A DNA stretch of 33,593 bases from Chloroflexota bacterium. Lineage in GTDB: Bacteria > Chloroflexota > Anaerolineae > Anaerolineales > UBA4823. Shown piece by piece: positions 13,100-33,186 of the stretch. Position numbers and translations under genes: made by a program. The notes under the pieces were generated by a model. The model was given only the letters and a program-made list of their open reading frames with translations. It searched no databases and was not told the DNA's origin. Within the stretch, counting starts at the first letter, position 1; every line of letters begins with the position of its first letter. The DNA lies in NCBI GenBank assembly GCA_046089985.1, contig JBJSYW010000533.1, positions 1 to 33,593 of the forward strand, written 5' to 3'.

Positions 13100-14566
13100 A
13101 TGCTGGAACAAATTCTTTTTAATTTGCGCGTGCGTGGCAATTTTTCTGACGACCAGCGCCTGCTGGCAGCCGTGTCCGGCGGACCGGACAGCCTGGTCCT
13201 GCTGGACGCCCTGTGGCGGCTGGGCGTGCCGCTGGTGGTGGCCCACCTGAACCACCTGCTTCGCCCGCAGGCCGGGGATGACCTGCGCTTTGTGCAGCAG
13301 GCTGCCGCCGAGCGCGGCCTGCCCTTCGCCGGCGCGCAAGCCGATGCCGGGGCGTACGCCCGCCTGCACGGCCTGTCGATCGAGGAGGCGGCCCGCACCT
13401 TGCGCTACCGCTTCCTGTTCGAGAGCGCCGCCGCGCACGGCTGCGCCGCCGTCGCCACCGGGCACACCGCCGACGACCAGGCCGAGACGGTGCTGATGCA
13501 CCTGCTGCGCGGCGCCGGCCCATCCGGGTTGAGCGGGATGGCCTTCCGCAGCCTGCCCAACCCGTGGAGCCAGTCGATCGCCCTGCTGCGCCCGCTGCTG
13601 GACCTGCCGCGCCAGGCGATCCTGGATTACCTGGCGGTGCACGCGCTGCAGCCCGTGCACGACGCCACCAACGATGATCTGCGCTACTACCGCAACCGCC
13701 TGCGCCACGAAACCCTGCCCTACCTGGAGCAGCTCAACCCGGGCGTGCGCGGCCGGTTGGTGCGCATGGCCCAGGTCATCGGCGATGAAGACCGCCTGCT
13801 GGACCAACTCACCGCCGCCGCCTGGCAGCAGATCGACGCCCGGACGGCCGGCGAGAGCGTCTCGTTGGACCGGGCGGCCTTCAACCGCCAACCGCCGGCC
13901 CTGCAGCGCCGCCTGCTGCGCCAGGCGCTGGAGGTCCTGCGCCCCGGTCTGCGTGATATCGATTTCGAACGCGTCGAGGCAGCCCGGCGCTTCGCCGCCG
14001 CCCCGCCGCGCAGCCGCCAGGCCGACCTGGTCGCCGGGCTGCGCCTGCTGGACGAGGGCGGGCGGCTGGTCATCGCCGCCTGGGAGGCCGACCTGCCCGA
14101 CGGCGGCTGGCCTCAGGCCCCGCCGGTTGAAACGCGCATCGCGCTGCCCGGACGGCTGGCCCTGCAGGACGGCTGGCTGCTGCAGGCGGATCTGCTGCCC
14201 GCAGATCGGCTGCCGCCCGGCGTCGACGCGCAGGCGCTGGCTGCTGCCAACACCGACCCGTATACCGCTTACCTGGACCTGGAACGCCTGCCCGGGCCGC
14301 CGGCGCTGCGCCGCCGCCGTGCGGGTGACCGCTTCCGCCCGTTGGGGCTGCAGGGCCATTCGCTCAAGCTGTCCGATTTCATGATCAACCAGCGCCTGCC
14401 GCGCCGGGCGCGCCCCGCCTGGCCGCTGCTGACCGTTGCCGGGCAGGTGGCCTGGCTGCCCGGCTATCGCATCGCCCAGCCGTTTGCCGCCGGCCCCGCC
14501 ACACGCCGCCTGCTCGTGCTGCGCCTGTACCGCCCGCCTGCGGCGGACGAAACACCGGAAGGTTAA
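13100..14566 (+). CDS. tilS: tRNA(Ile)-lysidine synthase TilS
   Basis: 488 aa. PP-loop 'LLAAVSGGPDSLVLLDAL', 'ATGHTADDQAETVLM', and a C-terminal TilS_C-like segment 'KLSDFMINQRLPRRARPAWPLL'. Confidence 0.9.
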   Translation: MLEQILFNLRVRGNFSDDQRLLAAVSGGPDSLVLLDALWRLGVPLVVAHLNHLLRPQAGDDLRFVQQAAAERGLPFAGAQADAGAYARLHGLSIEEAARTLRYRFLFESAAAHGCAAVATGHTADDQAETVLMHLLRGAGPSGLSGMAFRSLPNPWSQSIALLRPLLDLPRQAILDYLAVHALQPVHDATNDDLRYYRNRLRHETLPYLEQLNPGVRGRLVRMAQVIGDEDRLLDQLTAAAWQQIDARTAGESVSLDRAAFNRQPPALQRRLLRQALEVLRPGLRDIDFERVEAARRFAAAPPRSRQADLVAGLRLLDEGGRLVIAAWEADLPDGGWPQAPPVETRIALPGRLALQDGWLLQADLLPADRLPPGVDAQALAAANTDPYTAYLDLERLPGPPALRRRRAGDRFRPLGLQGHSLKLSDFMINQRLPRRARPAWPLLTVAGQVAWLPGYRIAQPFAAGPATRRLLVLRLYRPPAADETPEG

Positions 14567-16758: not shown

Positions 16759-18387
16759 TCATGACTCCAGATCACGCGCCAGGTACAGCTCGCCGCTGTG
16801 GAACCCCAGGCGGCGGTAATATTGGCGGGTGCCGACCGCCGAGATCACCGCCAGGCGGCGGAAGCCGCGCTGCTGCGCCAGGCGGGCCGCTTCTTCAACC
16901 AGGCGCGTGCCCAGGCCGCTGTGCTGGGCTGCGCCGGTCTCTTCCGCGCCCACCGCCAGCGCTTGACCATAGACGTGCACCTCGCGGATGATCGCCGCGC
17001 CCTGCAGGTCAGCTAAGCCGCACTCGGGCGCGCCGTCCGGCCCGCCCCACCCCGCGCCGGGCAGCGACAGGCGCAGGAAGCCCGCCAGATGGTCGCTCGG
17101 AGTGTCAAAGGACAGGAAGTGCTCCTCGGCGCCCGGCGTGGCATACACCAGGTCGTGCAGCGCCAGCTGCGCCGGGTCCACCTTCTGCTCGCCCACCTCG
17201 CGGCAGCGGATGCAGCGGCAGGCCTGGCCGCGCCGCTGCAGTTCGGCGTGCACATCCTGGCGCAGGCTGGTGCGCCGGTTGCCCTCCACCACATAGGTCG
17301 ACGGGATATCGCGGATCACCCGGTTGACCCGGCAGTAGCGCGGGATGCCGGGCTTGATATCCGCGATCAGGTCGATCAGCTCCTGGGTGGTGTACGGTCT
17401 GTATTCGCCGCGCTGCCAGACCGCGTACAGTTCGGCTTCCTTGAGCAGCTGGTTGGGGTAGATCTTGATCTCATCCGGGCAGCAGCCGTCCCACAGCCGG
17501 GCGAAGTCCTCCCGGTCGCCCTGCGGAGTTGCGCCGTACAGGTTGGGCATCCAGTGCAGCACAATCTTGAACCCGGCGGCGCGCAGCAGGTCCACCGCCT
17601 GCTTGGCCTGGGCGGCGCTGTGACCGCGCCGGTTCAGCGCCAGCAAGCCGTCATCCAGGCTCTGCACACCCAGCTGTACCTTGGTCACCCCTAACCGGCG
17701 CAGCCAGGCCAGTTCCTGCGGGGTGATCTCATCCGGGCGGGTCTCGATCACCAACCCCACGTTGCGGTGGGCGGCGGTCTCGTTATACGCCTGGGCCGCT
17801 TCCAGGCTGGGCAGCTCGGCGCCGTTCATCGCATCGAACAGGCGATGGATAAACCACTGCTGGTAATCGCGGCGGTAGGCGCTCCACGTGCCGCCCAGCA
17901 CCAGCAGCTCGATCTTATCGGTCGGGTGGCCCACCGCTTCCAGGGCCTGGATGCGCGCCGCCACCTGGGCGTAGGGGTCAAAATCGTGCTCCAGCGCCCG
18001 CCGGGCGCCCGGTTCGTCCTGGATATAGCTCTTCGGCATGCGCACGTCGGTGGGGCAGAAGATGCACTTGCCCGGGCACGGGTAGGGCATGGTCAGCACG
18101 GTGACCGTGGTGACGCCCGACAGCGTGCGCACCGGCTTCAAGCGGATGCGCTTGAGCAGCTGCGGGTCTTCCGCCCATTCGCCGCTTGCCACCAACCCGC
18201 GATAGGCCGCCACCAGCAGCGACTTGGCCGCATAACCGCCGTCTGGCAGCGGAAACCGGCGCACCGCATCCGTCACCTCCCGGCCGCGGCGCACCGCCTC
18301 CAGCACCTGGCGCGCTACCGCCAGCTTCTCGGGAGAAACTGCCCGCAGTTCGTGCCAGGTCGGCTGCTTTTCTGCTTTAGGGACCAT
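16759..18387 (-). CDS. elp3: Elp3-type tRNA uridine(34) carboxymethyl-modification enzyme (radical SAM + GNAT acetyltransferase)
   Basis: 542 aa. Radical-SAM cluster motif 'CPGKCIFCP', then 'ELLVLGGTWSAY'. The C-terminal GNAT domain has the acetyl-CoA motif 'QHSGLGTRLVEEAARLA'. The architecture matches archaeal/eukaryotic Elp3 and the rare bacterial homologues. Confidence 0.9.
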   Translation of the reverse strand: MVPKAEKQPTWHELRAVSPEKLAVARQVLEAVRRGREVTDAVRRFPLPDGGYAAKSLLVAAYRGLVASGEWAEDPQLLKRIRLKPVRTLSGVTTVTVLTMPYPCPGKCIFCPTDVRMPKSYIQDEPGARRALEHDFDPYAQVAARIQALEAVGHPTDKIELLVLGGTWSAYRRDYQQWFIHRLFDAMNGAELPSLEAAQAYNETAAHRNVGLVIETRPDEITPQELAWLRRLGVTKVQLGVQSLDDGLLALNRRGHSAAQAKQAVDLLRAAGFKIVLHWMPNLYGATPQGDREDFARLWDGCCPDEIKIYPNQLLKEAELYAVWQRGEYRPYTTQELIDLIADIKPGIPRYCRVNRVIRDIPSTYVVEGNRRTSLRQDVHAELQRRGQACRCIRCREVGEQKVDPAQLALHDLVYATPGAEEHFLSFDTPSDHLAGFLRLSLPGAGWGGPDGAPECGLADLQGAAIIREVHVYGQALAVGAEETGAAQHSGLGTRLVEEAARLAQQRGFRRLAVISAVGTRQYYRRLGFHSGELYLARDLES

Positions 18388-18388
18388 T

Positions 18389-18394
18389 TATAAT
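18389..18394 (+). promoter_or_regulatory. -10 box for the Trm9-like methyltransferase (leaderless configuration)
   Basis: Perfect TATAAT 7 nt before the GTG at 18402, with no SD. The box lies 1 nt from the divergent Elp3 start codon (18385-18387). Confidence 0.45.
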
Positions 18395-18401
18395 ACCTCG
18401 C

Positions 18402-19136
18402 GTGGACCTTTCTACCGCTAATCAATTGGTTGAACTCAACCGTCAATTTTACCAGACCTTCGCCCGCTCCTTTTCGGCCACCCGCCAGCGCCTGCAGCCG
18501 GGTGTGTGGCGCATCGTGGAAGAGCTGCCCGCCGGGGCTGCCGTGCTGGACCTGGGCTGCGGCAACGGCGAGTTGGGGCGCGTGCTGCTGGGGCGCGGCC
18601 ACACCGCGGGCTACACCGGGGTCGACTTCGCCCCCGCCCTGCTGGACGCCCGTCGGGAGTCGGCCGGCGCCCCGCCGGGAACGCTCGAGTTTGTCGAAGC
18701 CGACCTGGCCGCGCCGGGCTGGCAGGCGGCCCTGCCGGGCCGGCGCTTTGCGGTGATCACGCTGTTCGCCGTGCTGCATCACCTGCCCGGCGCGGCGGCT
18801 CGCCAGGCGCTGCTGGACGGCGCCGGTCAACTGCTGCTGCCCGGCGGGCGGCTGGAGCTTTCCTGCTGGCAGTTCCTGAACAGCCCGCGCCTGCGCCAGC
18901 GCATCCAGCCCTGGCAGGCCGCCGGGATTGACCCGGCCACGGTCGACCCCGGCGACTACCTGCTGGACTGGCGTCAGGACGGCGCCGGGCTGCGCTATGT
19001 GCACCATTTCGACGATCAAGAGCTGACCGGGTTGGCTGCCGCCGCCGGGTTCCAGGTCAGCCGGCGCTTCCACGCCGATGGCGAAGGCGGGCAGTTGAGT
19101 ATTTACCACACCTGGCAGCGATTAGGACCGGAGTAA
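18402..19136 (+). CDS. Class I SAM-dependent methyltransferase, Trm9/ALKBH8-MT-like
   Basis: 244 aa with a GTG start. 'FYQTFARSFSATRQRLQPGVWRIVEELPAGAAVLDLGCGNG', 'FAVITLFAVLHHLPG' and 'LLPGGRLELSCWQF' resemble the Trm9 pattern as I recall it (HFSxTR..PWP.V, D.GCGNGKY, ISIAVIHH, GG..L...WA.EQ). The generic methyltransferase call is solid. The Trm9 subfamily call is inference. Confidence 0.8.
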   Translation: MDLSTANQLVELNRQFYQTFARSFSATRQRLQPGVWRIVEELPAGAAVLDLGCGNGELGRVLLGRGHTAGYTGVDFAPALLDARRESAGAPPGTLEFVEADLAAPGWQAALPGRRFAVITLFAVLHHLPGAAARQALLDGAGQLLLPGGRLELSCWQFLNSPRLRQRIQPWQAAGIDPATVDPGDYLLDWRQDGAGLRYVHHFDDQELTGLAAAAGFQVSRRFHADGEGGQLSIYHTWQRLGPE

Positions 19137-21120: not shown

Positions 21121-21846
21121 ATGAAAGAACTTGCTGCCGCCGCCCGCAGCCTGTTGGGGATCAGCCTGACGCCGCTGCAGATCACTGCGTTCGAGACCTA
21201 CGAGCGAGAGCTGTTGAATTGGAACGCGAAAATGAACCTGACTGCCATCCGCGAACCGGAGGGCATCCGCACCAAGCACTTCCTCGATTCGCTGACCTGC
21301 CTGCTGGTGATGCAGGGCGCTCCAATGGAGCGCGTCATCGACGTGGGCACCGGGGCCGGTTTCCCCGGGCTGGCGCTGAAGCTCCTCAACCCGGCTATGC
21401 AGTTGACCCTGGTCGAATCGGTGGGCAAGAAGGCCGATTTCTGCCGCCACGTGGCCAAAACGCTCAAACTGGACGGGGTGCAGGTGCTGACCGAGCGCGC
21501 CGAAGCCGTGGGGCAGCTAAAAGCTCACCGCCAGGCCTATGACTGGGCGCTGGCGCGGGCCGTGGCGGTGCTGCCGGTACTGGTGGAATACCTGCTGCCG
21601 CTGGCGCGCGTGGGCGGGGCGGCACTGGCTATGAAAGGCGAGAGCGCCCCGGCCGAGGCGCACGATTCCGAGCACGCCAACCGGGTGTTGGGCGGTCACC
21701 TGCGCCGGCTGGTGCCGGTCACCCTGCCGGGGGTGGTTGAGCAGCGCTACCTGGTGGTGGTGGATAAAGTGGCGGCTACGCCGTCCGGGTATCCACGCCG
21801 GGTGGGCCTGCCGGCCAAGAACCCGCTCCTGCCGGTCAAAACCTGA
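21121..21846 (+). CDS. rsmG: 16S rRNA (guanine527-N7)-methyltransferase RsmG (GidB)
   Basis: 241 aa. 'WNAKMNLTAIREPEGIRTKHFLDSL', the SAM motif 'VIDVGTGAGFPGLALK', and 'LVESVGKKADF'. Confidence 0.92.
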   Translation: MKELAAAARSLLGISLTPLQITAFETYERELLNWNAKMNLTAIREPEGIRTKHFLDSLTCLLVMQGAPMERVIDVGTGAGFPGLALKLLNPAMQLTLVESVGKKADFCRHVAKTLKLDGVQVLTERAEAVGQLKAHRQAYDWALARAVAVLPVLVEYLLPLARVGGAALAMKGESAPAEAHDSEHANRVLGGHLRRLVPVTLPGVVEQRYLVVVDKVAATPSGYPRRVGLPAKNPLLPVKT

Positions 21847-25366: not shown

Positions 25367-25987
25367 TCAGGCGGTGCGCAGCTTGCGCGCCAGGAAGATC
25401 ACCGCTGCCAGCAGCACAGCCAGGCCCAGCATCACCGGCAGGCCCACTTCATCGGCAAAGCCGGTCTGGGGCATGGCAGTGGGTTGGACGGCGCCGCGCG
25501 CCGTCGCCGTCATGGCGTTCATTGTCACGATCGCTTCCAATGTGACATAGCGCGCCGTGGCTGTGGCGTCATCCGGCGAGATCGGCGCCCCGCCGCTGTC
25601 TGGCGCGGCCGCCGCCGGGGCGGAGGGCTGCGCCACAACCGGGGTGGGGGTCAGCGTGATGGTGGGCGTGGGCGGGACCGGGGTGTTGGTGGGGGTAGCC
25701 GTATAGGCCGCCACAATCGCCGTCTCGGCCGCGGAGGTGGAGGTCTGCTGCACAATCGCTTCTACTTCGGTCTGCTGAGCATCCAGGGTGGCCTGGCGGG
25801 CAACGGTACCGGCGCGCGAGCGCGGCAGCAGCACCAGGGCATACACAGCGATGCACACCAGCGCCAGCAGGGCAATGCCGCCCAGGGCCGCCGCAATAAT
25901 CAAGAAGGTGCGGTTGCTCGATTCTTCCACCGGCGGCGGCGCATCTTGGTTCAGGGTGTCATCCAGGTCCAGGTTTTCGAAACTCAT
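25367..25987 (-). CDS. Pro/Thr-rich exported protein with N-terminal anchor helix and C-terminal sortase-type sorting signal (MPQTG + TM + RKLR)
   Basis: 206 aa. It has an acidic N-terminus, a helix 'FLIIAAALGGIALLALVCIAVYALVLL' and a 'TPTNTPVPPTPTITLTPTP' linker. The C-terminus reads 'MPQTG' (25460-25474), then a hydrophobic stretch of about 24 aa, then 'RKLRTA'. A GAGGAG SD precedes the ATG. Confidence 0.7.
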   Translation of the reverse strand: MSFENLDLDDTLNQDAPPPVEESSNRTFLIIAAALGGIALLALVCIAVYALVLLPRSRAGTVARQATLDAQQTEVEAIVQQTSTSAAETAIVAAYTATPTNTPVPPTPTITLTPTPVVAQPSAPAAAAPDSGGAPISPDDATATARYVTLEAIVTMNAMTATARGAVQPTAMPQTGFADEVGLPVMLGLAVLLAAVIFLARKLRTA

Positions 25988-26004
25988 AGCATTCTCCTCT
26001 TCGA

Positions 26005-27057
26005 CTATGCGATCACTTCAAGGTTCGCCAGCGGAATAATCGCCTTTGCGCCGTTTTCCAGGCGCACTTCGGCAGCCGGGGCGCGCAGCCCGCCAGGGAA
26101 AACCACCGATCCCTTCATGGCAGTGAGGACACCGGCGGCCCCGGCGTAGGGCGCCCGGCGGATGCGCACCGCCTGGTCCAGCGCAAACTGGACCGATTCA
26201 GGCGGGGGGGTGACCAAACCGGAAGGCGGCATGGGGATGACCACCTCCGGACGAACGCCGCTGTAAGCGTTCCAGGCATCGGCGTTCAATGCCAGTTCGC
26301 GGCGGTCGCTGCTGATCAGCAGCTTGAAGGCGGCCGGGTGATAGGCCCGCCGGCCAAAGCCTTCCAGCACAATCACCGGGATGTTCAGGCGCTGCAGCTG
26401 CGGCGCCAGCGCGGCGCTCACGCCGGAGAAGATCAGCCCGCGCAGCGGCAGCTCGTCGGCCGTCTTGAGCGCTTCTGCGCTGGCGCCGTACCCCGCCAGC
26501 ACGATCGAGCCGCGCATGCTCACATCCAGGTCGGAAGGCTGCAGTTCGTGCTCGGGCTGGCGGGCTACGCAGGTCAGCACGCCGAAGTCGAGCCGGCCGT
26601 TGCCCCATACGCCTTGGATCAGCGCCCCCGTGCCTTCGACTACTGCGCCGCGCTCGGGCACCAGATCCACCACTTCGCCCGGCAGCCCGGCCTTGATCTG
26701 CAGCGGTTTGCTGAGCGTTTCCAGCAGCACCTGGCCGTTGCCAGCCAGCATCACCCGCCCGTCACGCGGGCAGCGGATCACCCGTTTGAAGATCCCCACC
26801 GGGCCGGCCAGGATGTCTTTCTCAGCCAGCTGATCGCCTTCGTGCACCTTCAGGTGCTTATCGGCTTTCTCGGCCGGCAGCCCCAGGCCGCGGGCGATGT
26901 CCACCAACAGGTAATCGGCGTTGGCGGTTGTCTCGGCCAGCACATCGCTCGGGCCGACCTTCTGCCCGGCGCGCACCAGCACTTTGCCGGGCGCCGGCAG
27001 CAGCCGGGTGCGGCGGATGGTGGTCAGCGGCAAGATATGGGTCACCGGCGCTAGCAT
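26005..27057 (-). CDS. Hypothetical protein with barrel-sandwich-hybrid-like N-terminus and KOW-like C-terminus
   Basis: 350 aa and soluble. 'GKVLVRAGQKVGPSDVLAE' resembles lipoyl/biotinyl-type hybrid barrels. C-terminal 'VRIRRAPYAGAAGVLTAMKG...VRLENGAKAIIPLANLEVI' resembles a KOW motif. A GGGAGG SD precedes the ATG. A 1-nt gap separates it from the upstream stop. I recognise no family. Confidence 0.65.
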   Translation of the reverse strand: MLAPVTHILPLTTIRRTRLLPAPGKVLVRAGQKVGPSDVLAETTANADYLLVDIARGLGLPAEKADKHLKVHEGDQLAEKDILAGPVGIFKRVIRCPRDGRVMLAGNGQVLLETLSKPLQIKAGLPGEVVDLVPERGAVVEGTGALIQGVWGNGRLDFGVLTCVARQPEHELQPSDLDVSMRGSIVLAGYGASAEALKTADELPLRGLIFSGVSAALAPQLQRLNIPVIVLEGFGRRAYHPAAFKLLISSDRRELALNADAWNAYSGVRPEVVIPMPPSGLVTPPPESVQFALDQAVRIRRAPYAGAAGVLTAMKGSVVFPGGLRAPAAEVRLENGAKAIIPLANLEVIA

Positions 27058-27058
27058 G

Positions 27059-28810
27059 CTACTGGCCTCCCAGGTTCCACAACCATTTTTTATACAGCTC
27101 GGCCCTGCGCCCCCGGTCGGCCGGCAGGTTCAGTGGGCGGCCGCGGGCGTCGATAATCACCCCCAGCACGCCGCCCATCACGCGCAAACCGCCGCCGCGC
27201 CCCGGCGCGCCCATGCCAATATCGGCGCGGTGCAGCGGCTGCAGCTGCAGCTTCGCCATCTGCCCAGCCGGCAGCGGCAGCATCTCCAGGCTGCCCTGCT
27301 TGACCTCCAGCGAGGCTTCGTATCCGCTCTCATAGACGATCTTCAACCGCAGCACCGGCTCACCGCTGCGCACGCGCGCCAGCGGCGCAATCACCGTGCC
27401 GATATGCAGCAGCGAATTGGAATCGAGCACCTGCACCACCAGGGTGGGGTTTTGCGCCGCAGCCGCCCCCAACGCCGATACCATGTTGTGCTGGTCCAGC
27501 ACCATCGTGGTGATCCCGGTCGGCTGGATTCCATCCAGCATCATCAGCGTGCTGTGAGCCACGTTGGGCGCGCCCGCCAGCACCCCGCCGGCGGCGATGA
27601 TCGGCTCGAAGGCCGGCAGCAGCCCGGTTGCCAGCGGTTGGGCGGCCGCCGGGAAACCCGGGGCGGCCGCTTTCAGGGCGCTACGCATCAGATAGCGCGC
27701 CAGCGCCTGCTCGATCGCCATCTCTTCCGCCGTAGCCGGCAGGCTGTCGGGCAGCAGGGCTTTGTTGTACAGGTAGTCGCGCAGGTCGTCAAGCGGCATA
27801 TCCAATGCCAGCCAGCTGGAGATCGCCTCCAGCGCGCCGGGGTCGCTCTCATACACCGGACTGCCCATCCCATACTGTGGAAAAACGTTTAACGACAGGC
27901 TGCCGTCATACGCCGCCGCCACGCTGATCGCCCCCGCGCCCAGGTCGATCCCCAGGACACCTTTACGGGTGGCGTGGGTCTTGCTCTGGATGCGCACGAT
28001 GCGCCCAAAGGCGCTGGCGGTGGGCAGCAGCCCGCCGCCGGCCCAGCGGTTCAACTCGTCCACCCCGGGGATCTGCTTCGCTCGCACCTGAGTGTACATG
28101 CGCGCCATCTCGGCTCGTGCGCCTTCGATCTGCTCGGTCTCCAGATCGGGCCGCAGGTTGGGGGCAAAATGCAGGTTGGTGACCGGGCCCAGGCTCTCCT
28201 GGATTTCGTCTTTGAGGCTATCGTTGCCAGCGAACAGCAGTTCCGGACGGCCGCTGCTGCCGGTCAGATAGCCGTACAGGCCAACCGCCTCCAGCATCTG
28301 GATCACCGACTGCGACGCGCCGCCCTGCGTCCCGCCCGCGGCGATGATCAGGTCCGGGCGTTGGCGCAGCAGCAGGTTAATGCGCGTGTCGGTGCGCCGG
28401 CGGTCATTCAGGCTGAACGCCCCCTGCACGTTAGCATACGTGGAGGCCGCCAGCCGCCGGGCGCTTTCCAGGCTGATATCTTCCAGCAGGCCCACCACCA
28501 CCACCTTGAGCGGCTCGCCGGCCGAGAGCGTGGCGGCGAAACGGTCAATTCCCGAGCCGTCTGGTGCGGAAGGGATGATCAACTGCTCATCCGCGCCGAT
28601 CAGCGTGCGTCCGGTGATCGTCTGCAAGCGGTCCAGCGCCAGCCGCACGCCTTCGCCAACATTATTGAAGGGAGCTTTAGCGGTGGACGGCGCCGTGCCG
28701 GAGGCCACAAAGCGGTAACGCCCCTCGACCACATCAAAGAGCACCGCGCGGGTGTTCACCGTGCCGACATCTACAACCAGGAAGGAATCTGCATCGAGCA
28801 ACGAAGTCAT
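27059..28810 (-). CDS. GlmL/'glutamate mutase L'-type ASKHA-superfamily (actin/Hsp70-fold) ATPase with C-terminal extension
   Basis: 583 aa. Phosphate-1 motif 'FLVVDVGTVNTRAVLFD', 'GEPLKVVVVGLLEDISLESARRLA', 'PDLIIAAGGTQGGASQSV', 'LLFAGNDSLKDEI', and a second-lobe motif 'VLGIDLGAGAISVAAA'. The order matches GlmL-family proteins as I recall them. The C-terminal roughly 120 aa ends in 'GVIIDARGRPLNL'. Confidence 0.7.
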   Translation of the reverse strand: MTSLLDADSFLVVDVGTVNTRAVLFDVVEGRYRFVASGTAPSTAKAPFNNVGEGVRLALDRLQTITGRTLIGADEQLIIPSAPDGSGIDRFAATLSAGEPLKVVVVGLLEDISLESARRLAASTYANVQGAFSLNDRRRTDTRINLLLRQRPDLIIAAGGTQGGASQSVIQMLEAVGLYGYLTGSSGRPELLFAGNDSLKDEIQESLGPVTNLHFAPNLRPDLETEQIEGARAEMARMYTQVRAKQIPGVDELNRWAGGGLLPTASAFGRIVRIQSKTHATRKGVLGIDLGAGAISVAAAYDGSLSLNVFPQYGMGSPVYESDPGALEAISSWLALDMPLDDLRDYLYNKALLPDSLPATAEEMAIEQALARYLMRSALKAAAPGFPAAAQPLATGLLPAFEPIIAAGGVLAGAPNVAHSTLMMLDGIQPTGITTMVLDQHNMVSALGAAAAQNPTLVVQVLDSNSLLHIGTVIAPLARVRSGEPVLRLKIVYESGYEASLEVKQGSLEMLPLPAGQMAKLQLQPLHRADIGMGAPGRGGGLRVMGGVLGVIIDARGRPLNLPADRGRRAELYKKWLWNLGGQ

Positions 28811-28811
28811 A

Positions 28812-29486
28812 TCAGGCCGCCGGTGTAATCAAGACCAGGATCAGGTGGATGATCGCATCCCAGCGCTCGATCAGCGCTGCCAGCGCCGCCGCGTACACCC
28901 CGGCGAAGATCGTCCCCAGCGTGACCGCGATGAAGACCTGCCCGGTGGCAGACACGCCGCGCAGCAGCAGGCCGGGCGAGCCGGCGCTGAGGCGTGGGCT
29001 GAGGTTGAACTGGAAATACGCCAGCGTCGCAAGGGTGCCGGCCAGGATCACCAACCCGTTGAGCACGGTCAGCGCGTCGCTGCGGTCAATCTGCTGGATG
29101 CCGGCGCGCACCTGGGGCAGCAGCGTGCCCAGCACAGCGCCGCCGATCAGCGCCGCCGCGCCCACGCCGACCAGGAAGGCCATCACCGGGCTGCCCAGCC
29201 CCGCCAGCCGGGTGGTGGCCTTGCTGAGCAGCAGCAGCGCTCCCAGCAGCGGCACAGCCGCCAGCAGCATCTGGTCGGGCATACCTGATAGGAACGGCAG
29301 CACCAGCCGCGGCACGATCAGATTGGTGATCACCACCGCCGCCGTGTAACCGGCGGCGACCCCGATGAAGATATGGATCGCGGTGCGGAACAGCACGTTG
29401 TCGCCAAATAGATAGCTAAACACCATCAGGGTGAGCAAGAAACCCACCAATCCGCCCAGCAGCGTGCTCAGGTCGATTCCGTTCAT
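28812..29486 (-). CDS. Polytopic integral membrane protein, uncharacterised
   Basis: 224 aa with about 6 hydrophobic helices (for example 'LLGGLVGFLLTLMVFSYLF' and 'IHIFIGVAAGYTAAVVITNLIV'). It has an ATGA overlap with the upstream gene and a 1-nt gap to the downstream gene. Confidence 0.7.
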   Translation of the reverse strand: MNGIDLSTLLGGLVGFLLTLMVFSYLFGDNVLFRTAIHIFIGVAAGYTAAVVITNLIVPRLVLPFLSGMPDQMLLAAVPLLGALLLLSKATTRLAGLGSPVMAFLVGVGAAALIGGAVLGTLLPQVRAGIQQIDRSDALTVLNGLVILAGTLATLAYFQFNLSPRLSAGSPGLLLRGVSATGQVFIAVTLGTIFAGVYAAALAALIERWDAIIHLILVLITPAA

Positions 29487-32400
29487 GATTTCGCCTCACC
29501 CTGGCTGCCCGCCGCCGGGCGATCCGCCGGGCGGGAGGCCTTGCGGTTCGCGTTCCAACGGCTGATCAGGTTGAACAGGATGCCCACCAGCATCAAGACG
29601 CCGGCCACCAGCATGCCGACGGTATAGGCCGGCCAGTAGCGGGTGCCGGCGCCAGCTTGCACGGTGGCCCATTCCAGGGCCGCTGCACCGTACAGCCCGC
29701 TGACCAGCCCCTGCACCTGCCCGGCGTCATAATACGGGCGCACCATCGGCTCGGCCTGGGCGCTGCTCACCACCACCAGCGGCAGCGACCCCGCCAGCGG
29801 GCGGTGCACCTGCTCGATCCAACTGCGCGCCGTTTCAGGGTCATCCACCGCAACGATCAACAGCTTGAAGCCCGCCAGCCCGCCGGGCTGGCGCAGCCCG
29901 GCCTGGGTCTGCCAGACCGGTTCGCCATTCACATCCAACGGCAGCACTGCCGCCGGGCAGACGGCAAACGCCAGCAGGCCGGAAGCGCCGCCGGGGACCA
30001 GCCCCAGGTTGGTATAATCCTGCGGCGACTGCCATGCCGGCCCCTGGGCCTGCCGCGAAACGGCCAGCAAATGCTCGGCCTGCAGCGGCCCGGTGGGCAG
30101 CGTGGAGACCATCGCCAGATAGGCCTGGCGCTCAGACAGCTGCCGCAGCACAACCTGCATGATTGGGTCCAGTTCGCCCGAGTACCCCGGCTGATAATCG
30201 ACCGCCAACAGCACCGGCGATTGGGGCGGCACGCTGCGCAGCAGTTCCAGCGCCGTCGCCACTTCCGGCGCCATCGCCGGAGCAGCCGCCGGCGGATAGC
30301 CAGTGAACAACGACAGCGCCACCGGCAGGATCAACAGGAAAGCCATCGCCAGGCGCAGCACGCCCAGCGAGGTGATCGCCGGTTTGCCGGGCGGCGGCGG
30401 GTTCTGCCCTTCCTGCGCCACCAGCTGGCCAAGCAGTTCGGCCTGCGTGCGATGCAGATCGGAAACAACCAACCGTCCGGTATAAGCCGGCGGACGAGTG
30501 GCCTGCGAGATATCCGGCTCGGCGCGCAGCGCGCCGCGCAGCCCAGCCAGCGGGCCGGCCCCAGCCACACCCTCACTCTCATCGGCGGCGGCAGCCGCCG
30601 CGCCCACCGCCCCCACCGGGCGCATCGCCTGCAGCCAACCGGGCAGTTCAGAGGGCGCCAGGTCGGCAGGGGCGGCAGCCGCCAGCCCGGCTTCGTCCGG
30701 CTCCTGCGCCACCCAGGTCGGCAGGCCCACATCGGCAGCGGGCAGTTCAGCCACCCGATCGCCCGAGGCGCTGTCGCCGGCTTCACCGTCCTCCGGCTGC
30801 ACCTGCTCCAGCCAGCTCAGGTCGCCTTCGCCCAGTGCGCTGCCATCGGCAGCCGTGGAGAAACCGGGCGTGGCGCCGGCAATTGCCGCCATCCAGTCTG
30901 GCATGCCCGGCTGGGCCGCCGGCTCCAGGGCAGCCCCATGATCAGGCTGGACCAACCAATCTGGGGTCTCAAACAGCTCTGCTGCGCCGGAAGGTTCGCC
31001 CGCCCCCAGGCCGGCGTCTGCGGCAGGCTCGCCGGCCGCGCCGGGGGTCTCGGCCGCCTCGTCAGCCGCGCTGCTGAGCCAATCCAGTTCTTCATCACCC
31101 GGCCAGGCGGCGTCGCCGCCGGCGCTCAGCCAATCCGGCACTTCACCGGCTGCGGTTGAAGAGGCCGGAGCCGCGCCCGGCGCAGCGCGGTCTGCTGCGG
31201 CGCTATCTGGAGCCGCCGGGGAAGCCGCCGCACCGGCAGACGGCGTCAGCCAGTCAGACAGCGCTTCGTCACCCGCCGCGGCCATCCAGTCCGGCAGTTC
31301 GGTCGCCTGAGCCGGGGCTTCTGCCTGCGGCGCGGCCGGGAAGACCTCCGCTCCTGCGGCGGCGCCCGCCGGGCTGAGCCAGTCGGGCAGGCCGCCTGGG
31401 GCGCTCGCCTCAGCAGGCGCCATCCAATCGGGCAGTTCACCCGGGGCACTCTCATCCGTAGACGCCATCCAATCGGGCAGTTCGGCCGGGGCGCTTTCTC
31501 CAGCACCCGTCATCCAGTCCGGCAGTTCGGCCGGGGCGCTTGCATTGGCAGACGCCATCCAATCGGGCAGATCAGCCTGCCCCGGGGTGGGTGGAGCCGC
31601 CGGCTCCGGTTTCAGCCAATCCGGCGTATCGTCCGCCAGGTGCGCATCTCCGCTTCCCGACAACCAGTCCGGCAGATCAGCCTGGGCCGGCGGGTTCAGC
31701 CAATCCGGCAGATCGCCGGACGGCTGCGCCGGCTGTGCCGACGGGAAGACCTCCGCCCCCAAGGATGGGGTATCGGTACTCGATGCGCTCATACTCGCAG
31801 CGCCGGCGCTGAGCCAGTCCGGCAGACCGCCGGACGGTGGGGCTTCATTGGCGGAAGACATCCAGTCCGGCAGTTCATCAGCCGGCTGGGCCTCACTGGC
31901 AGACGCCATCCAGTCCGGCGCTGCCGGGCCGGGCTGTGGCGCCGCCGCTCCCGGCTCCGGCTTGAGCCAGTCGGGCAGGTCATCGGCGGCCGGGGTGCTG
32001 TTCAGCCAGTCGGGCAGGCCGCTGTCTGCCGCATCAGGGATCGGCTGTGACAGGAAATCAGCCTCGCCATTGGCAGCCTGGCCTGGCTTATCAGACGCCG
32101 GCTCCTGCCCGCCAATGCGCGACAGCCAATCCCCGGCCGCGCTGTCTTCATACTCGCCGCTCGCCGGGCTGTCCCACTCCTCGGCAGATCCGGGGGCGTC
32201 TCCCAGGATTTCATCCAGCCAATCTCGCCCGCCGCCCGCCGGAGCGTCCGAGGCGGCGTCCTGAGCGGGGACGTTCTCAGCCGGCAGTTCCGGCTCGGAG
32301 CGCAGCCCGCTCAACCAATCCGGCAGCCCATCCTGCGCTCCCGGCGCAGCTGAGCCGGGCTTACCCGGCGGCTGGTTGTCCGGCTGGCGCAGATCGCTCA

Positions 32401-32563
32401 GCCAGCCAGGCAGGCTGAACTCTTCCCCTCCGCCGGCCGGCTGGTCGGGGTTCAGGTCGCCCAGCCAGACCGGTTTGAGGCGCGCCTGGCAGAACTGGCA
32501 CACATCCCGGTCGGCCGGGTTGGGTTTTCCACACATCGGACAGCGCACGTCAGCCATGCTCAT
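29483..32563 (-). CDS. Zinc-ribbon protein with about 600-aa acidic PDW[LM]-repeat region and C-terminal TM-ectodomain-TM module
   Basis: 1026 aa. 'CPMC-x10-CQFC' spans residues 8-25. I hand-counted 26 copies of xPDW[LM]-type motifs between residues 51 and 645. TM helices lie at about 731-753 and 979-1001 and flank an alpha/beta-looking domain of about 225 aa. ATGA overlaps occur at both ends of the gene. Confidence 0.8.
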   Translation of the reverse strand: MSMADVRCPMCGKPNPADRDVCQFCQARLKPVWLGDLNPDQPAGGGEEFSLPGWLSDLRQPDNQPPGKPGSAAPGAQDGLPDWLSGLRSEPELPAENVPAQDAASDAPAGGGRDWLDEILGDAPGSAEEWDSPASGEYEDSAAGDWLSRIGGQEPASDKPGQAANGEADFLSQPIPDAADSGLPDWLNSTPAADDLPDWLKPEPGAAAPQPGPAAPDWMASASEAQPADELPDWMSSANEAPPSGGLPDWLSAGAASMSASSTDTPSLGAEVFPSAQPAQPSGDLPDWLNPPAQADLPDWLSGSGDAHLADDTPDWLKPEPAAPPTPGQADLPDWMASANASAPAELPDWMTGAGESAPAELPDWMASTDESAPGELPDWMAPAEASAPGGLPDWLSPAGAAAGAEVFPAAPQAEAPAQATELPDWMAAAGDEALSDWLTPSAGAAASPAAPDSAAADRAAPGAAPASSTAAGEVPDWLSAGGDAAWPGDEELDWLSSAADEAAETPGAAGEPAADAGLGAGEPSGAAELFETPDWLVQPDHGAALEPAAQPGMPDWMAAIAGATPGFSTAADGSALGEGDLSWLEQVQPEDGEAGDSASGDRVAELPAADVGLPTWVAQEPDEAGLAAAAPADLAPSELPGWLQAMRPVGAVGAAAAAADESEGVAGAGPLAGLRGALRAEPDISQATRPPAYTGRLVVSDLHRTQAELLGQLVAQEGQNPPPPGKPAITSLGVLRLAMAFLLILPVALSLFTGYPPAAAPAMAPEVATALELLRSVPPQSPVLLAVDYQPGYSGELDPIMQVVLRQLSERQAYLAMVSTLPTGPLQAEHLLAVSRQAQGPAWQSPQDYTNLGLVPGGASGLLAFAVCPAAVLPLDVNGEPVWQTQAGLRQPGGLAGFKLLIVAVDDPETARSWIEQVHRPLAGSLPLVVVSSAQAEPMVRPYYDAGQVQGLVSGLYGAAALEWATVQAGAGTRYWPAYTVGMLVAGVLMLVGILFNLISRWNANRKASRPADRPAAGSQGEAKS
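30629..32413 (-). repeat. Coding array of 26 dispersed PDW[LM]-type peptide motifs (DNA cores ccaGTCcggcag / ccaATCgggcag on the plus strand)
   Basis: There are 18 exact P-D-W-[LM] copies and 8 degenerate copies (LPGWL x2, RDWL, GDWL, LSDWL, ELDWL, LSWL, LPTWV). Spacers are 6-45 aa and rich in A/P/G/S/D/E. Synonymous codons differ among copies. Confidence 0.9.
31376..31573 (-). repeat. 45-bp (15-aa) periodic tandem block inside the PDW array
   Basis: Residues 331-396 read LPDWMA-SANASAPAE / LPDWMT-GAGESAPAE / LPDWMA-STDESAPGE / LPDWMA-PAEASAPGG / LPDWLS. The plus strand shows the recurring 'catccaRtcSggcagttc'. Confidence 0.85.
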
Positions 32564-33186
32564 CCACCGTACGGGCGGTCAGCGCCCATCAGAACGCGCA
32601 GACCGGCGGTAACCGATCCAAGCGCCACGCCCAGTAAAATACCGCGCGCCCCGGCCGTCGCCATGGCCTGCAGCAGCCAGACGCGCAGTTCGGTCACACC
32701 CGGCACACCCACCCCACCCAGGAAGAAGGTGGTCAGCAGCAGCACCAGCACCGTGGCGGCGAAAACCAGCGTAAACAGGTTGGCGCGCCGGTAGAGCATC
32801 CGCCCAACGGCGAACACCAGCACCACCGCCAGCAGCGCCAGCAGGCTGGACTCGACCGGCAGCAGCAGGTTCTGGTAAATCCAAACCGAAGGGGCGCTGG
32901 ATAAACCAAAAACCAGCCCCACCACCAGCGTGACCACCAGCGACAGCAGCAGCACCAGGCTGTAGAACAGACCAGGCTGACCGGTACGCACTTTCTTCCA
33001 ATGCACGCGGGCCAGGTTCAGCACACCCACCAGCAGGGCCGCTCCAGCCAGCAGCGTAGCCCAATCGACCAGCAGCACGCGGGCCGGCGTGAGCAGGGGC
33101 AGATCAATAAAATACGGCGCCAGCACAATCAACCCGCTGGCGATAGCGATCATCGCCAGCAGCGGGGCCTGCACCCGGCGGTTCAC
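32560..33186 (-). CDS. Polytopic integral membrane protein, uncharacterised
   Basis: 208 aa with a GTG start, and about 6 hydrophobic helices. It has a GTGA overlap with the upstream ORF and an ATGA overlap with the downstream giant gene. Confidence 0.65.
   Translation of the reverse strand: MNRRVQAPLLAMIAIASGLIVLAPYFIDLPLLTPARVLLVDWATLLAGAALLVGVLNLARVHWKKVRTGQPGLFYSLVLLLSLVVTLVVGLVFGLSSAPSVWIYQNLLLPVESSLLALLAVVLVFAVGRMLYRRANLFTLVFAATVLVLLLTTFFLGGVGVPGVTELRVWLLQAMATAGARGILLGVALGSVTAGLRVLMGADRPYGG

Follow-up and report, generated by a model that had tools for sequence, protein, structure and literature searches.

Whether a bacterium can modify the wobble uridine of its tRNAs by the route of archaea and eukaryotes, in which Elp3 forms 5-carboxymethyluridine (cm5U) at position 34 and Trm9 esterifies it to 5-methoxycarbonylmethyluridine (mcm5U), is the question raised by two neighbouring genes on contig JBJSYW010000533.1 of a Chloroflexota bacterium of the class Anaerolineae (assembly GCA_046089985.1), the 33,593 nucleotides of which are referred to here as the window. 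A reading made from the letters alone (hereafter the sequence-only reading) had noted a full-length Elp3 separated by 14 bp from a divergent S-adenosylmethionine (SAM)-dependent methyltransferase (MT), and had proposed that both form a functional unit for an mcm5U-type modification. Both open reading frames (ORFs) are present where they had been placed. We consider it likely, with a probability of roughly 0.68, that this Elp3 makes cm5U34 and that the MT methyl-esterifies cm5U34 to mcm5U, and an mcm5U pathway probably runs in these bacteria. At the level of sequence, the first protein is a member of the Elp3 family, the MT is homologous to Trm9 in profile comparisons and keeps most of its active-site residues, and the pair is co-conserved in two classes of Chloroflexota; the products, the tRNA substrates and the independence of the MT from Trm112 are what we infer.

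The Elp3 assignment is secure. The protein scores 474.7 bits on the NCBIfam model TIGR01211 (cut-off 350), with residues 73-539 aligned to positions 47-521 of the 522 model positions, and contains the Pfam domains Radical_SAM, Radical_SAM_C and Acetyltransf_1, the last being the GNAT domain at residues 486-529. Among solved structures it matches the Elp3 of Dehalococcoides mccartyi (DmcElp3, PDB 5l7j) at E 4e-112 with 43% identity, archaeal Elp3 proteins at about 1e-109, and the human and yeast proteins at 1e-81 to 1e-86. The residues that were mapped in DmcElp3 as catalytic or metal-binding are kept without exception, including the cysteines of the [4Fe-4S] cluster and of the Zn site (Table 1), as well as K158, K274, E469 and Y523 of the acetyl-CoA pocket, which correspond to K77, K193, E386 and Y441 of DmcElp3 and are all conserved. 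A Zn motif of three cysteines is typical of bacterial and archaeal Elp3 (PMC6367351). The alignment with DmcElp3 starts at residue 85 of the window protein and that with human Elp3 already at residue 25, such that the window protein carries an N-terminal extension which DmcElp3 lacks. This extension has been linked to tRNA binding and is short in DmcElp3, the weak activity of which was attributed partly to its absence (PMC6367351, PMC7663514). From this conservation, the window Elp3 is predicted to act as a cm5U34 synthase on tRNA. By contrast, the statement of the sequence-only reading that bacterial Elp3 homologues are rare has to be given up: at least 8000 homologous proteins are found at E <= 1e-20, and at least 574 of the best 600 metagenome stretches were confirmed, so that such sequences are not rare.

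The kinship of the MT with Trm9 is seen when families rather than single sequences are compared. As a reference, a sequence of Saccharomyces cerevisiae Trm9 (ScTrm9) was validated against the solved Trm9 of Yarrowia (PDB 5cm2_Z), which it matches at E 4.5e-71, and 120 fungal Trm9 proteins were gathered with the real Yarrowia sequence, many of them named as Trm9 by their source. Aligned with hhalign, the MT family matches this fungal set with a probability of 99.3% and E 2.4e-20 over 193 columns, covering residues 14-223, while RsmG, a class I MT that the same genomes encode and that served as a control, reaches a probability of 44.5% and E 2.3e-4 over 48 columns. When a hidden Markov model (HMM) of fungal Trm9 was run against the 5985 ORFs of the window and 81 related loci (1.28 Mb), the top 82 matches were the MTs of each of the 82 sources, with E-values of 8.5e-17 to 4.6e-6 (3.7e-8 for the window MT), followed by the next ORF at 1.8e-4. 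The identity to fungal Trm9 is about 22%. The single MT sequence finds Yarrowia Trm9 in the PDB as a weak match (E 0.015), and a profile of 26 family members does so at E 8.5e-9 with 38.4 bits. 5cm2_Z is the only PDB match of the family profile that is aligned across MT residues 25-220; most other matches are limited to the Rossmann core (approximately residues 40-155), with 3sm3 and a few more extending further toward the C-terminus.

Mutations that abolish or strongly lower the activity of ScTrm9 affect R29, D72, H116, W145, W168, R241, Y243 and N271, with R29A retaining about 5% activity and H116A and W145A being inactive (PMC4678810). Counted over 239 near-full-length members of the MT family, six of these eight residues are near-invariant, each being found in 234-239 members, namely R28, D75, H127, W156, W190 and R198. 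D75, the acidic SAM ligand, corresponds to D72 (234/239), W190 to W168 (239/239) and R198 to R241 (236/239); in addition, Y17 is equivalent to ScTrm9 Y18 and is kept in 235 members. The remaining correspondences are listed in Table 1. The motifs quoted in the sequence-only reading (CPGKCIFC and QHSGLGTRL of Elp3, and FSATR, LDLGCGNG, GGRLELSCWQF and ITLFAVLHHLPG of the MT translation) all stand at the expected places, and the yeast Trm9 strings that it had given for comparison are essentially right.

Conservation of the pair was followed from both sides. On the MT side, one genome per GTDB species was taken. Of the resulting 80 loci, nearly all belong to Anaerolineae or to Chloroflexota metagenome-assembled genomes (MAGs), and 73 are informative in that their upstream sequence exceeds 1 kb. 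In 68 of these 73, Elp3 is adjacent, divergent and directly upstream of the MT, and the median length of the spacer is about 45 bp. On the Elp3 side, where 80 metagenome loci were collected and 62 are informative (more than 700 bp upstream), the MT is adjacent in 50 and within about 3 kb in 3 more, while 9 have none in the covered flank. The surroundings are less stable: only 25 of 77 MT-side loci retain the downstream phosphoesterase, and among the 80 metagenome loci of the Elp3 side formate-tetrahydrofolate ligase (FTHFS) occurs in 11 and the phosphoesterase in 12. Because the pairing counts far exceed the retention of any such neighbour, the pair is kept far more faithfully than the surrounding synteny. 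One MT-side locus (L061) contains a second, weaker MT-like ORF. Three homologues carry MAG labels from outside the Chloroflexota, that is an MT locus labelled Nitrosomonadaceae (L064), an MT homologue labelled Omnitrophica (P0106) and a Dehalococcoidia-type Elp3 labelled Bacteroidota (P0457); these labels could reflect mis-binning or lateral transfer.

A search with DmcElp3, combined with an inspection of gene context, revealed that the crystallised bacterial Elp3 has a partner of the same kind. In D. mccartyi CP019867 a class I MT of 224 amino acids lies divergent to the gene of DmcElp3, 43 bp upstream, and the same divergent arrangement recurs in four further Dehalococcoidia loci, giving five of six informative loci, with MTs of 186-224 amino acids; one informative locus has no MT beside Elp3. 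These MTs share 22% identity with the window MT and contain the motifs HH, VWN..Q, VPW, RYY.L(F/Y) and (S/A)RNICL, in which the equivalents of Y243 and N271 are both kept. On the fungal Trm9 HMM they score 64-67 bits over the full length, compared with 31 bits for the window MT, and with hhalign they match fungal Trm9 at E 1.5e-28. Furthermore, a profile of their C-terminal, non-Rossmann part finds only Trm9 among 177,635 PDB sequences (E 1.7e-4, the next match being at 0.76). The Dehalococcoidia MTs are clearly Trm9-like in sequence, and they are linked to the window family by hhalign at E 6.5e-20, or with a probability of 94.5% and E 7.7e-8 when the C-terminal parts alone are compared. Since the loci of Anaerolineae and Dehalococcoidia both show the pair, two classes of Chloroflexota keep Elp3 together with a divergent Trm9-type MT despite the drift of the MT.

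Three further features accompany the pair in Dehalococcoidia. In four of the five loci, including that of D. mccartyi, a gene for a zinc-ribbon protein of 72-75 amino acids (CPxC...GPYKCWKCR) follows co-directionally just downstream of the MT; it is absent from the Anaerolineae loci. Searched as a Trm112 candidate, this protein gave generic zinc-ribbon matches below threshold and no Trm112 match in Pfam or the PDB, and a role as a Trm112-like activator is speculative. In three loci QueH, an epoxyqueuosine reductase and as such also a position-34 tRNA enzyme, and a small GNAT acetyltransferase are located 1-2 kb from the MT-Elp3 pair. In the locus L084, SAM synthetase and S-adenosylhomocysteine hydrolase are encoded just downstream of Elp3.

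In the mechanism that we propose, the two genes would encode a divergently transcribed pair for the modification of the tRNA wobble uridine. Elp3 would act alone, as archaeal Elp3 does, on a subset of tRNAs, where it would carboxymethylate U34 at C5 with the help of two domains, the radical domain, which relies on a [4Fe-4S] cluster and SAM, and the lysine acetyltransferase (KAT) domain, which binds acetyl-CoA. The carboxylate of the resulting cm5U would then be methyl-esterified by the Trm9-like MT at the expense of SAM, yielding mcm5U and, after thiolation by other enzymes, possibly its 2-thio derivative mcm5s2U. By analogy with Trm9, R28, H126, H127 and R198 of the MT may position the carboxylate, while W156 and W190 may stack on bases. 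As a prediction, the mcm5U-type unit of the sequence-only reading is supported by the HMM assignment, by the co-occurrence, which holds on both sides of the pair and across the class boundary into Dehalococcoidia, and by six of the eight active-site residues of Trm9; with regard to Trm9 versus UbiE or other families, on which it had suggested a check, no curated bacterial family reaches its cut-off and the alignment to fungal Trm9 is the one reported above.

A number of observations weigh against this reading. In the PDB search with the family profile HMM, Trm9 ranks ninth, with its 38.4 bits compared with 45.4 for 3sm3. The AlphaFold2 model of the MT (pLDDT 91.4, Rossmann-type strand order) places Trm9 34th by E-value in a Foldseek search of the PDB; the target-normalised TM-score of Trm9, 0.79, is the highest among the 50 matches listed, and the search is not discriminating, with more than 1000 class I MTs matching at E <= 0.001. 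Profiles of the N-terminal or the C-terminal region of the MT family alone did not find Trm9 in the PDB and gave no meaningful matches, because these regions are too short and too divergent. Best-hit logic alone does not make the window MT a Trm9. Within the active site, the essential Y243 of ScTrm9 is replaced by V200 (valine in 200 of 239 members). Opposite N271, the proposed reader of the uracil, stands G227, with which a hairpin loop begins that exceeds the loop of Trm9 in length, and about 20 amino acids are inserted between the W156 and W190 motifs of the family. A crude regular-expression search for a Trm112-type Zn-knuckle ORF found none in the window or in 81 Anaerolineae loci. The partner is missing from the covered flank in 5 of the 73 MT loci (L055, L060, L061, L071 and L077) and in 9 of the 62 Elp3 loci (L101, L117, L129, L138, L146, L163, L166, L167 and L168). 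Finally, DmcElp3 is very weak in vitro, and a derivative of the 5-carboxymethyluridine type (xcm5U) has been shown in no bacterium (PMC7663514).

The changes in the active site suggest, as an alternative, an MT that is derived from Trm9 and acts on Elp3-modified tRNA, but with an altered chemistry or substrate: it might methylate another xcm5U intermediate or a 2-thiolated form, recognise the base in another context, or yield something else than mcm5U. The equivalents of Y243 and N271 are changed in nearly all members, the insertion separates the two tryptophan motifs, and the window MT shares only 22% identity with the more canonical Dehalococcoidia MT and scores less than half as many bits on the fungal Trm9 HMM. 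However, the residues proposed for carboxylate binding and catalysis (R28, H126, H127 and R198) are invariant, as are the stacking tryptophans, and the conserved pairing with Elp3 means that the substrate of the MT most likely derives from the Elp3 product, so that we regard an altered specificity as improbable. A more radical alternative is that the MT has nothing to do with tRNA and methylates small molecules or proteins as a generic enzyme, the adjacency to Elp3 being inherited synteny or shared SAM-related regulation. Its Pfam matches are indeed generic (Methyltransf_23, Methyltransf_12, Methyltransf_25 and Methyltransf_11), no curated NCBIfam family reaches its cut-off, the models for UbiE, UbiG, BioC, CpaM and methyltransferases of ribosomally synthesised and post-translationally modified peptides (RiPPs) giving 17-44 bits against cut-offs of 100-400, and the top PDB and Foldseek matches are natural-product, lipid or uncharacterised MTs. 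Yet most of the better-ranked matches span the Rossmann core only and Trm9 the larger part of the protein, and the active-site residues specific to Trm9 do not vary. In the PDB, Trm9 alone is matched by the C-terminal part of the Dehalococcoidia MT, and the two genes stay paired where every other neighbour is different, across Anaerolineae and Dehalococcoidia and at 22% MT identity. A generic MT appears very unlikely on these grounds. Scarcely to be expected, finally, is that Elp3 has a role outside tRNA, for instance in acetylating proteins or in a different radical-SAM reaction, with the MT serving that pathway. The very weak tRNA-induced activity of DmcElp3 and the failure to detect bacterial xcm5U (PMC7663514) would suit such a role, but in the window Elp3 no catalytic residue is lost, the tRNA-binding N-terminal extension is present, and the partner is Trm9-like. 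Both a tRNA-unrelated MT and a non-tRNA Elp3 are unlikely because of the linkage and the conserved residues. The formation of mcm5U by Elp3 and a Trm9-like MT is the explanation that we prefer.

Specific bacterial identities considered for the MT were rejected. The quinone MTs UbiG, UbiE and MenG were discarded with 20.7 bits for UbiG against a cut-off of 102.95 and 17.5 for UbiE against 216. For CmoM and CmoA there is no NCBIfam match at E <= 0.01, and the CmoA structures 4gek and 4iwn are reached only at E 0.046-0.063. The models for RiPP- or corrinoid-associated MTs stay far under their curated cut-offs. The family itself is large, with more than 5798 clusters at 90% identity and 1239 clusters at 50% identity (E <= 1e-30), and in the search of cluster representatives with the family profile the 150 clusters listed all stay within the family. 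Many of the homologues are named 'tRNA (uracil-5-)-methyltransferase TRM9' by the JGI annotation pipeline, and for these bacterial MTs this name is used by automated annotation only.

The Trm9 proteins of eukaryotes and of Haloferax volcanii require Trm112, and in bacteria the usual enzymes for the same position are MnmE and MnmG. With Escherichia coli sequences as queries, tblastn found no MnmG in 1.86 Mb of Chloroflexota DNA, a search of low power that covered only the flanks of the pair, and for MnmE a single weak match to the G domain in the same DNA. The gene of MnmG (GidA) often precedes that of RsmG (GidB) in bacteria; in the window, and in about 30 related loci, RsmG is encoded without an MnmG neighbour. 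Together with the lack of MnmG in the flanks, this is consistent with a loss of MnmE and MnmG, although it does not demonstrate it. A broader proposal can be made tentatively, and may well prove wrong: Chloroflexota of the classes Anaerolineae and Dehalococcoidia might use the Elp3-Trm9 route to mcm5(s2)U instead of MnmE/MnmG, with a Trm9 that would work without Trm112, either standing alone with a remodelled uracil-recognition loop in Anaerolineae or being activated by the adjacent zinc-ribbon protein in Dehalococcoidia. If this were true, it would represent the first Trm9 in bacteria and offer a natural experiment on activation independent of Trm112.

Table 1. Genes, motifs and neighbouring features of the Elp3-MT locus and of related loci (positions refer to the window unless a locus is named).
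Feature	Position	Strand	Remarks
elp3, radical-SAM/GNAT tRNA uridine-34 carboxymethyl synthase homologue	16759..18387	-	542 aa, ATG start
Trm9-like class I SAM methyltransferase (MT), predicted tRNA cm5U34 carboxyl O-methyltransferase	18402..19136	+	244 aa, GTG start
Divergent intergenic spacer	18388..18401	.	14 bp, TTATAATACCTCGC; from sequence
TATAAT in spacer	18389..18394		perfect match
Elp3: acetyl-CoA-binding motif QHSGLGTRL	16900..16926	-	KAT/GNAT domain, within Pfam Acetyltransf_1
Elp3: Zn cysteines CRCIRC (C390, C392, C395)	17203..17220	-	aligned with DmcElp3 C310, C312, C315
Elp3: radical-SAM [4Fe-4S] motif CPGKCIFC (CX4CX2C; C104, C108, C111)	18055..18078	-	aligned with DmcElp3 C23, C27, C30
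Elp3: N-terminal extension, residues 1-84	18136..18387	-	16 K/R; missing from DmcElp3; from alignment starts
MT: FSATR motif	18471..18485	+	R28 = ScTrm9 R29 (proposed carboxylate-binding); R28 in 239/239
MT: SAM-binding motif I LDLGCGNG	18546..18569	+	sequence and alignment
MT: HH pair H126, H127	18777..18782	+	= ScTrm9 H115, H116 (catalytic histidines); H127 in 239/239, H126 in 228/239
MT: W156	18867..18869	+	= ScTrm9 W145 (proposed U34 stacking); 238/239
MT: C-terminal substrate-side motif DWRQDGAGLRYVHHF	18966..19010	+	alignments with Dehalococcoidia MT and Trm9
TilS	13100..14566	+	2.2 kb from Elp3
RsmG (GidB)	21121..21846	+	no MnmG (GidA) neighbour
Uncharacterised operon	25367..33186	-	six co-directional ORFs
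Zinc-ribbon gene, Dehalococcoidia	L082 4423-4650, L083 4387-4605, L085 1967-2185, L088 2002-2226	-	41-51% identical to D. mccartyi copy
QueH and small GNAT region, Dehalococcoidia	L082 3140-4406, L083 2767-3859, L085 484-1728
Second, weaker MT-like ORF	L061 16256-16906

The spacer between both genes contains a perfect TATAAT that ends 7 nucleotides ahead of the GTG of the MT, a placement that would suit a leaderless MT mRNA, and on the opposite strand a GAGG 9-10 nucleotides ahead of the Elp3 ATG; a consensus scan found no complete sigma-70 promoter. The chromosomal neighbours include TilS, FTHFS, a metallophosphoesterase, DUF4349, RsmG, RecF and MutL, the GC content of about 66% is even throughout the window, and no tRNA genes lie within it. 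An origin from a mobile element or island was rejected in view of the housekeeping neighbours (TilS, FTHFS, RsmG, RecF and MutL) and the even GC content. TilS, the tRNA-Ile lysidine-34 synthetase, also modifies a wobble base, but its proximity looks coincidental, since it is retained near the pair in none of 80 genome loci and none of 80 metagenome loci. Further downstream lies an uncharacterised operon of six co-directional ORFs (206, 350, 583, 224, 1026 and 208 amino acids), of which the 583-residue product matches Pfam PF13941 ('MutL protein', of the type of the glutamate-mutase-associated ATPase), while the other five have no Pfam match at 1e-5.

As to what has been written on such systems, a 2020 review confined Elp3 among bacteria to Dehalococcoides, with no xcm5U derivative shown there (PMC7663514), and a paper of 2026 speaks of 'numerous bacteria' with Elp3. 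A 2017 review stated that genes similar to the methyltransferases dependent on Trm112, among them Trm9, could not be detected in bacteria (PMC5372719). Full-text searches turned up no publication dealing with Elp3 of Anaerolineae or Chloroflexi, or with Trm9 in bacteria, and the literature consulted here makes no mention of the MT neighbour of DmcElp3. The present data point to a widespread, conserved module of Elp3 and a Trm9-like MT across Chloroflexota, which has gone unremarked beside the gene of the crystallised DmcElp3. If active, such modules would be simple two-protein systems in which to reconstitute Elongator chemistry, the Anaerolineae Elp3 carrying the tRNA-binding N-terminus that is missing in the poorly active DmcElp3, and they would pose the concrete question of how Trm9 functions without Trm112. 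They are also relevant to the question of vertical inheritance of the Elp3 and MT genes versus their acquisition from archaea.

Among known systems, that of archaea offers a close comparison: the genes of Elp3 and Trm9 are clustered in Sulfolobus solfataricus (PMC2584109), and the Trm9-Trm112 complex of H. volcanii makes mcm5U (PMC6144793). Like the archaeal systems (HVO_2888 and HVO_1032-Trm112 in H. volcanii, and their counterparts in S. solfataricus), the window has a stand-alone Elp3 without Elp1, Elp2, Elp4, Elp5 or Elp6, three Zn-binding cysteines, and a Trm9-type MT that is genetically linked to Elp3. Unlike them, it belongs to a bacterium of the Chloroflexota, no Trm112 gene is seen nearby, and its MT has the exchanges of Y243 to valine and N271 to glycine as well as the insertion, all as judged by comparison with fungal rather than archaeal Trm9. 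With eukaryotic Elongator and Trm9-Trm112 or ALKBH8 it would share the two-step logic of cm5U followed by mcm5U, and it does share the domain architecture of Elp3, including the N-terminal extension, and the MT motifs FS.TR, HH, W, W and RY.H; it differs in lacking the other Elongator subunits, the Kti proteins and an evident Trm112, and in that its genes are adjacent and divergent, which the eukaryotic genes are not. DmcElp3, the only bacterial Elp3 studied structurally, comes from the same phylum, is 43% identical and likewise has a divergent class I MT, but is shorter by about 84 N-terminal residues, and its partner MT is shorter (224 amino acids), much nearer to canonical Trm9 (VPW, RYY.L, RNICL) and followed by the zinc-ribbon gene. 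The MnmE/MnmG (and MnmC) pathway to xm5U34 has the same target and role, the C5 modification of the wobble uridine for NNR codons, and yet employs unrelated enzymes, a GTPase and an FAD- and folate-dependent protein, with a different chemistry (cmnm5/mnm5). CmoM, the carboxyl methyltransferase of E. coli for uridine 5-oxyacetic acid (cmo5U) at position 34, is also a bacterial class I MT that esterifies a carboxyl group on a modified U34, but acts on the oxyacetic acid side chain provided by CmoA and CmoB instead of Elp3. Set beside these systems, the Elp3-MT pair adds a bacterial member to a pathway that is already known and does not represent a new kind of system.

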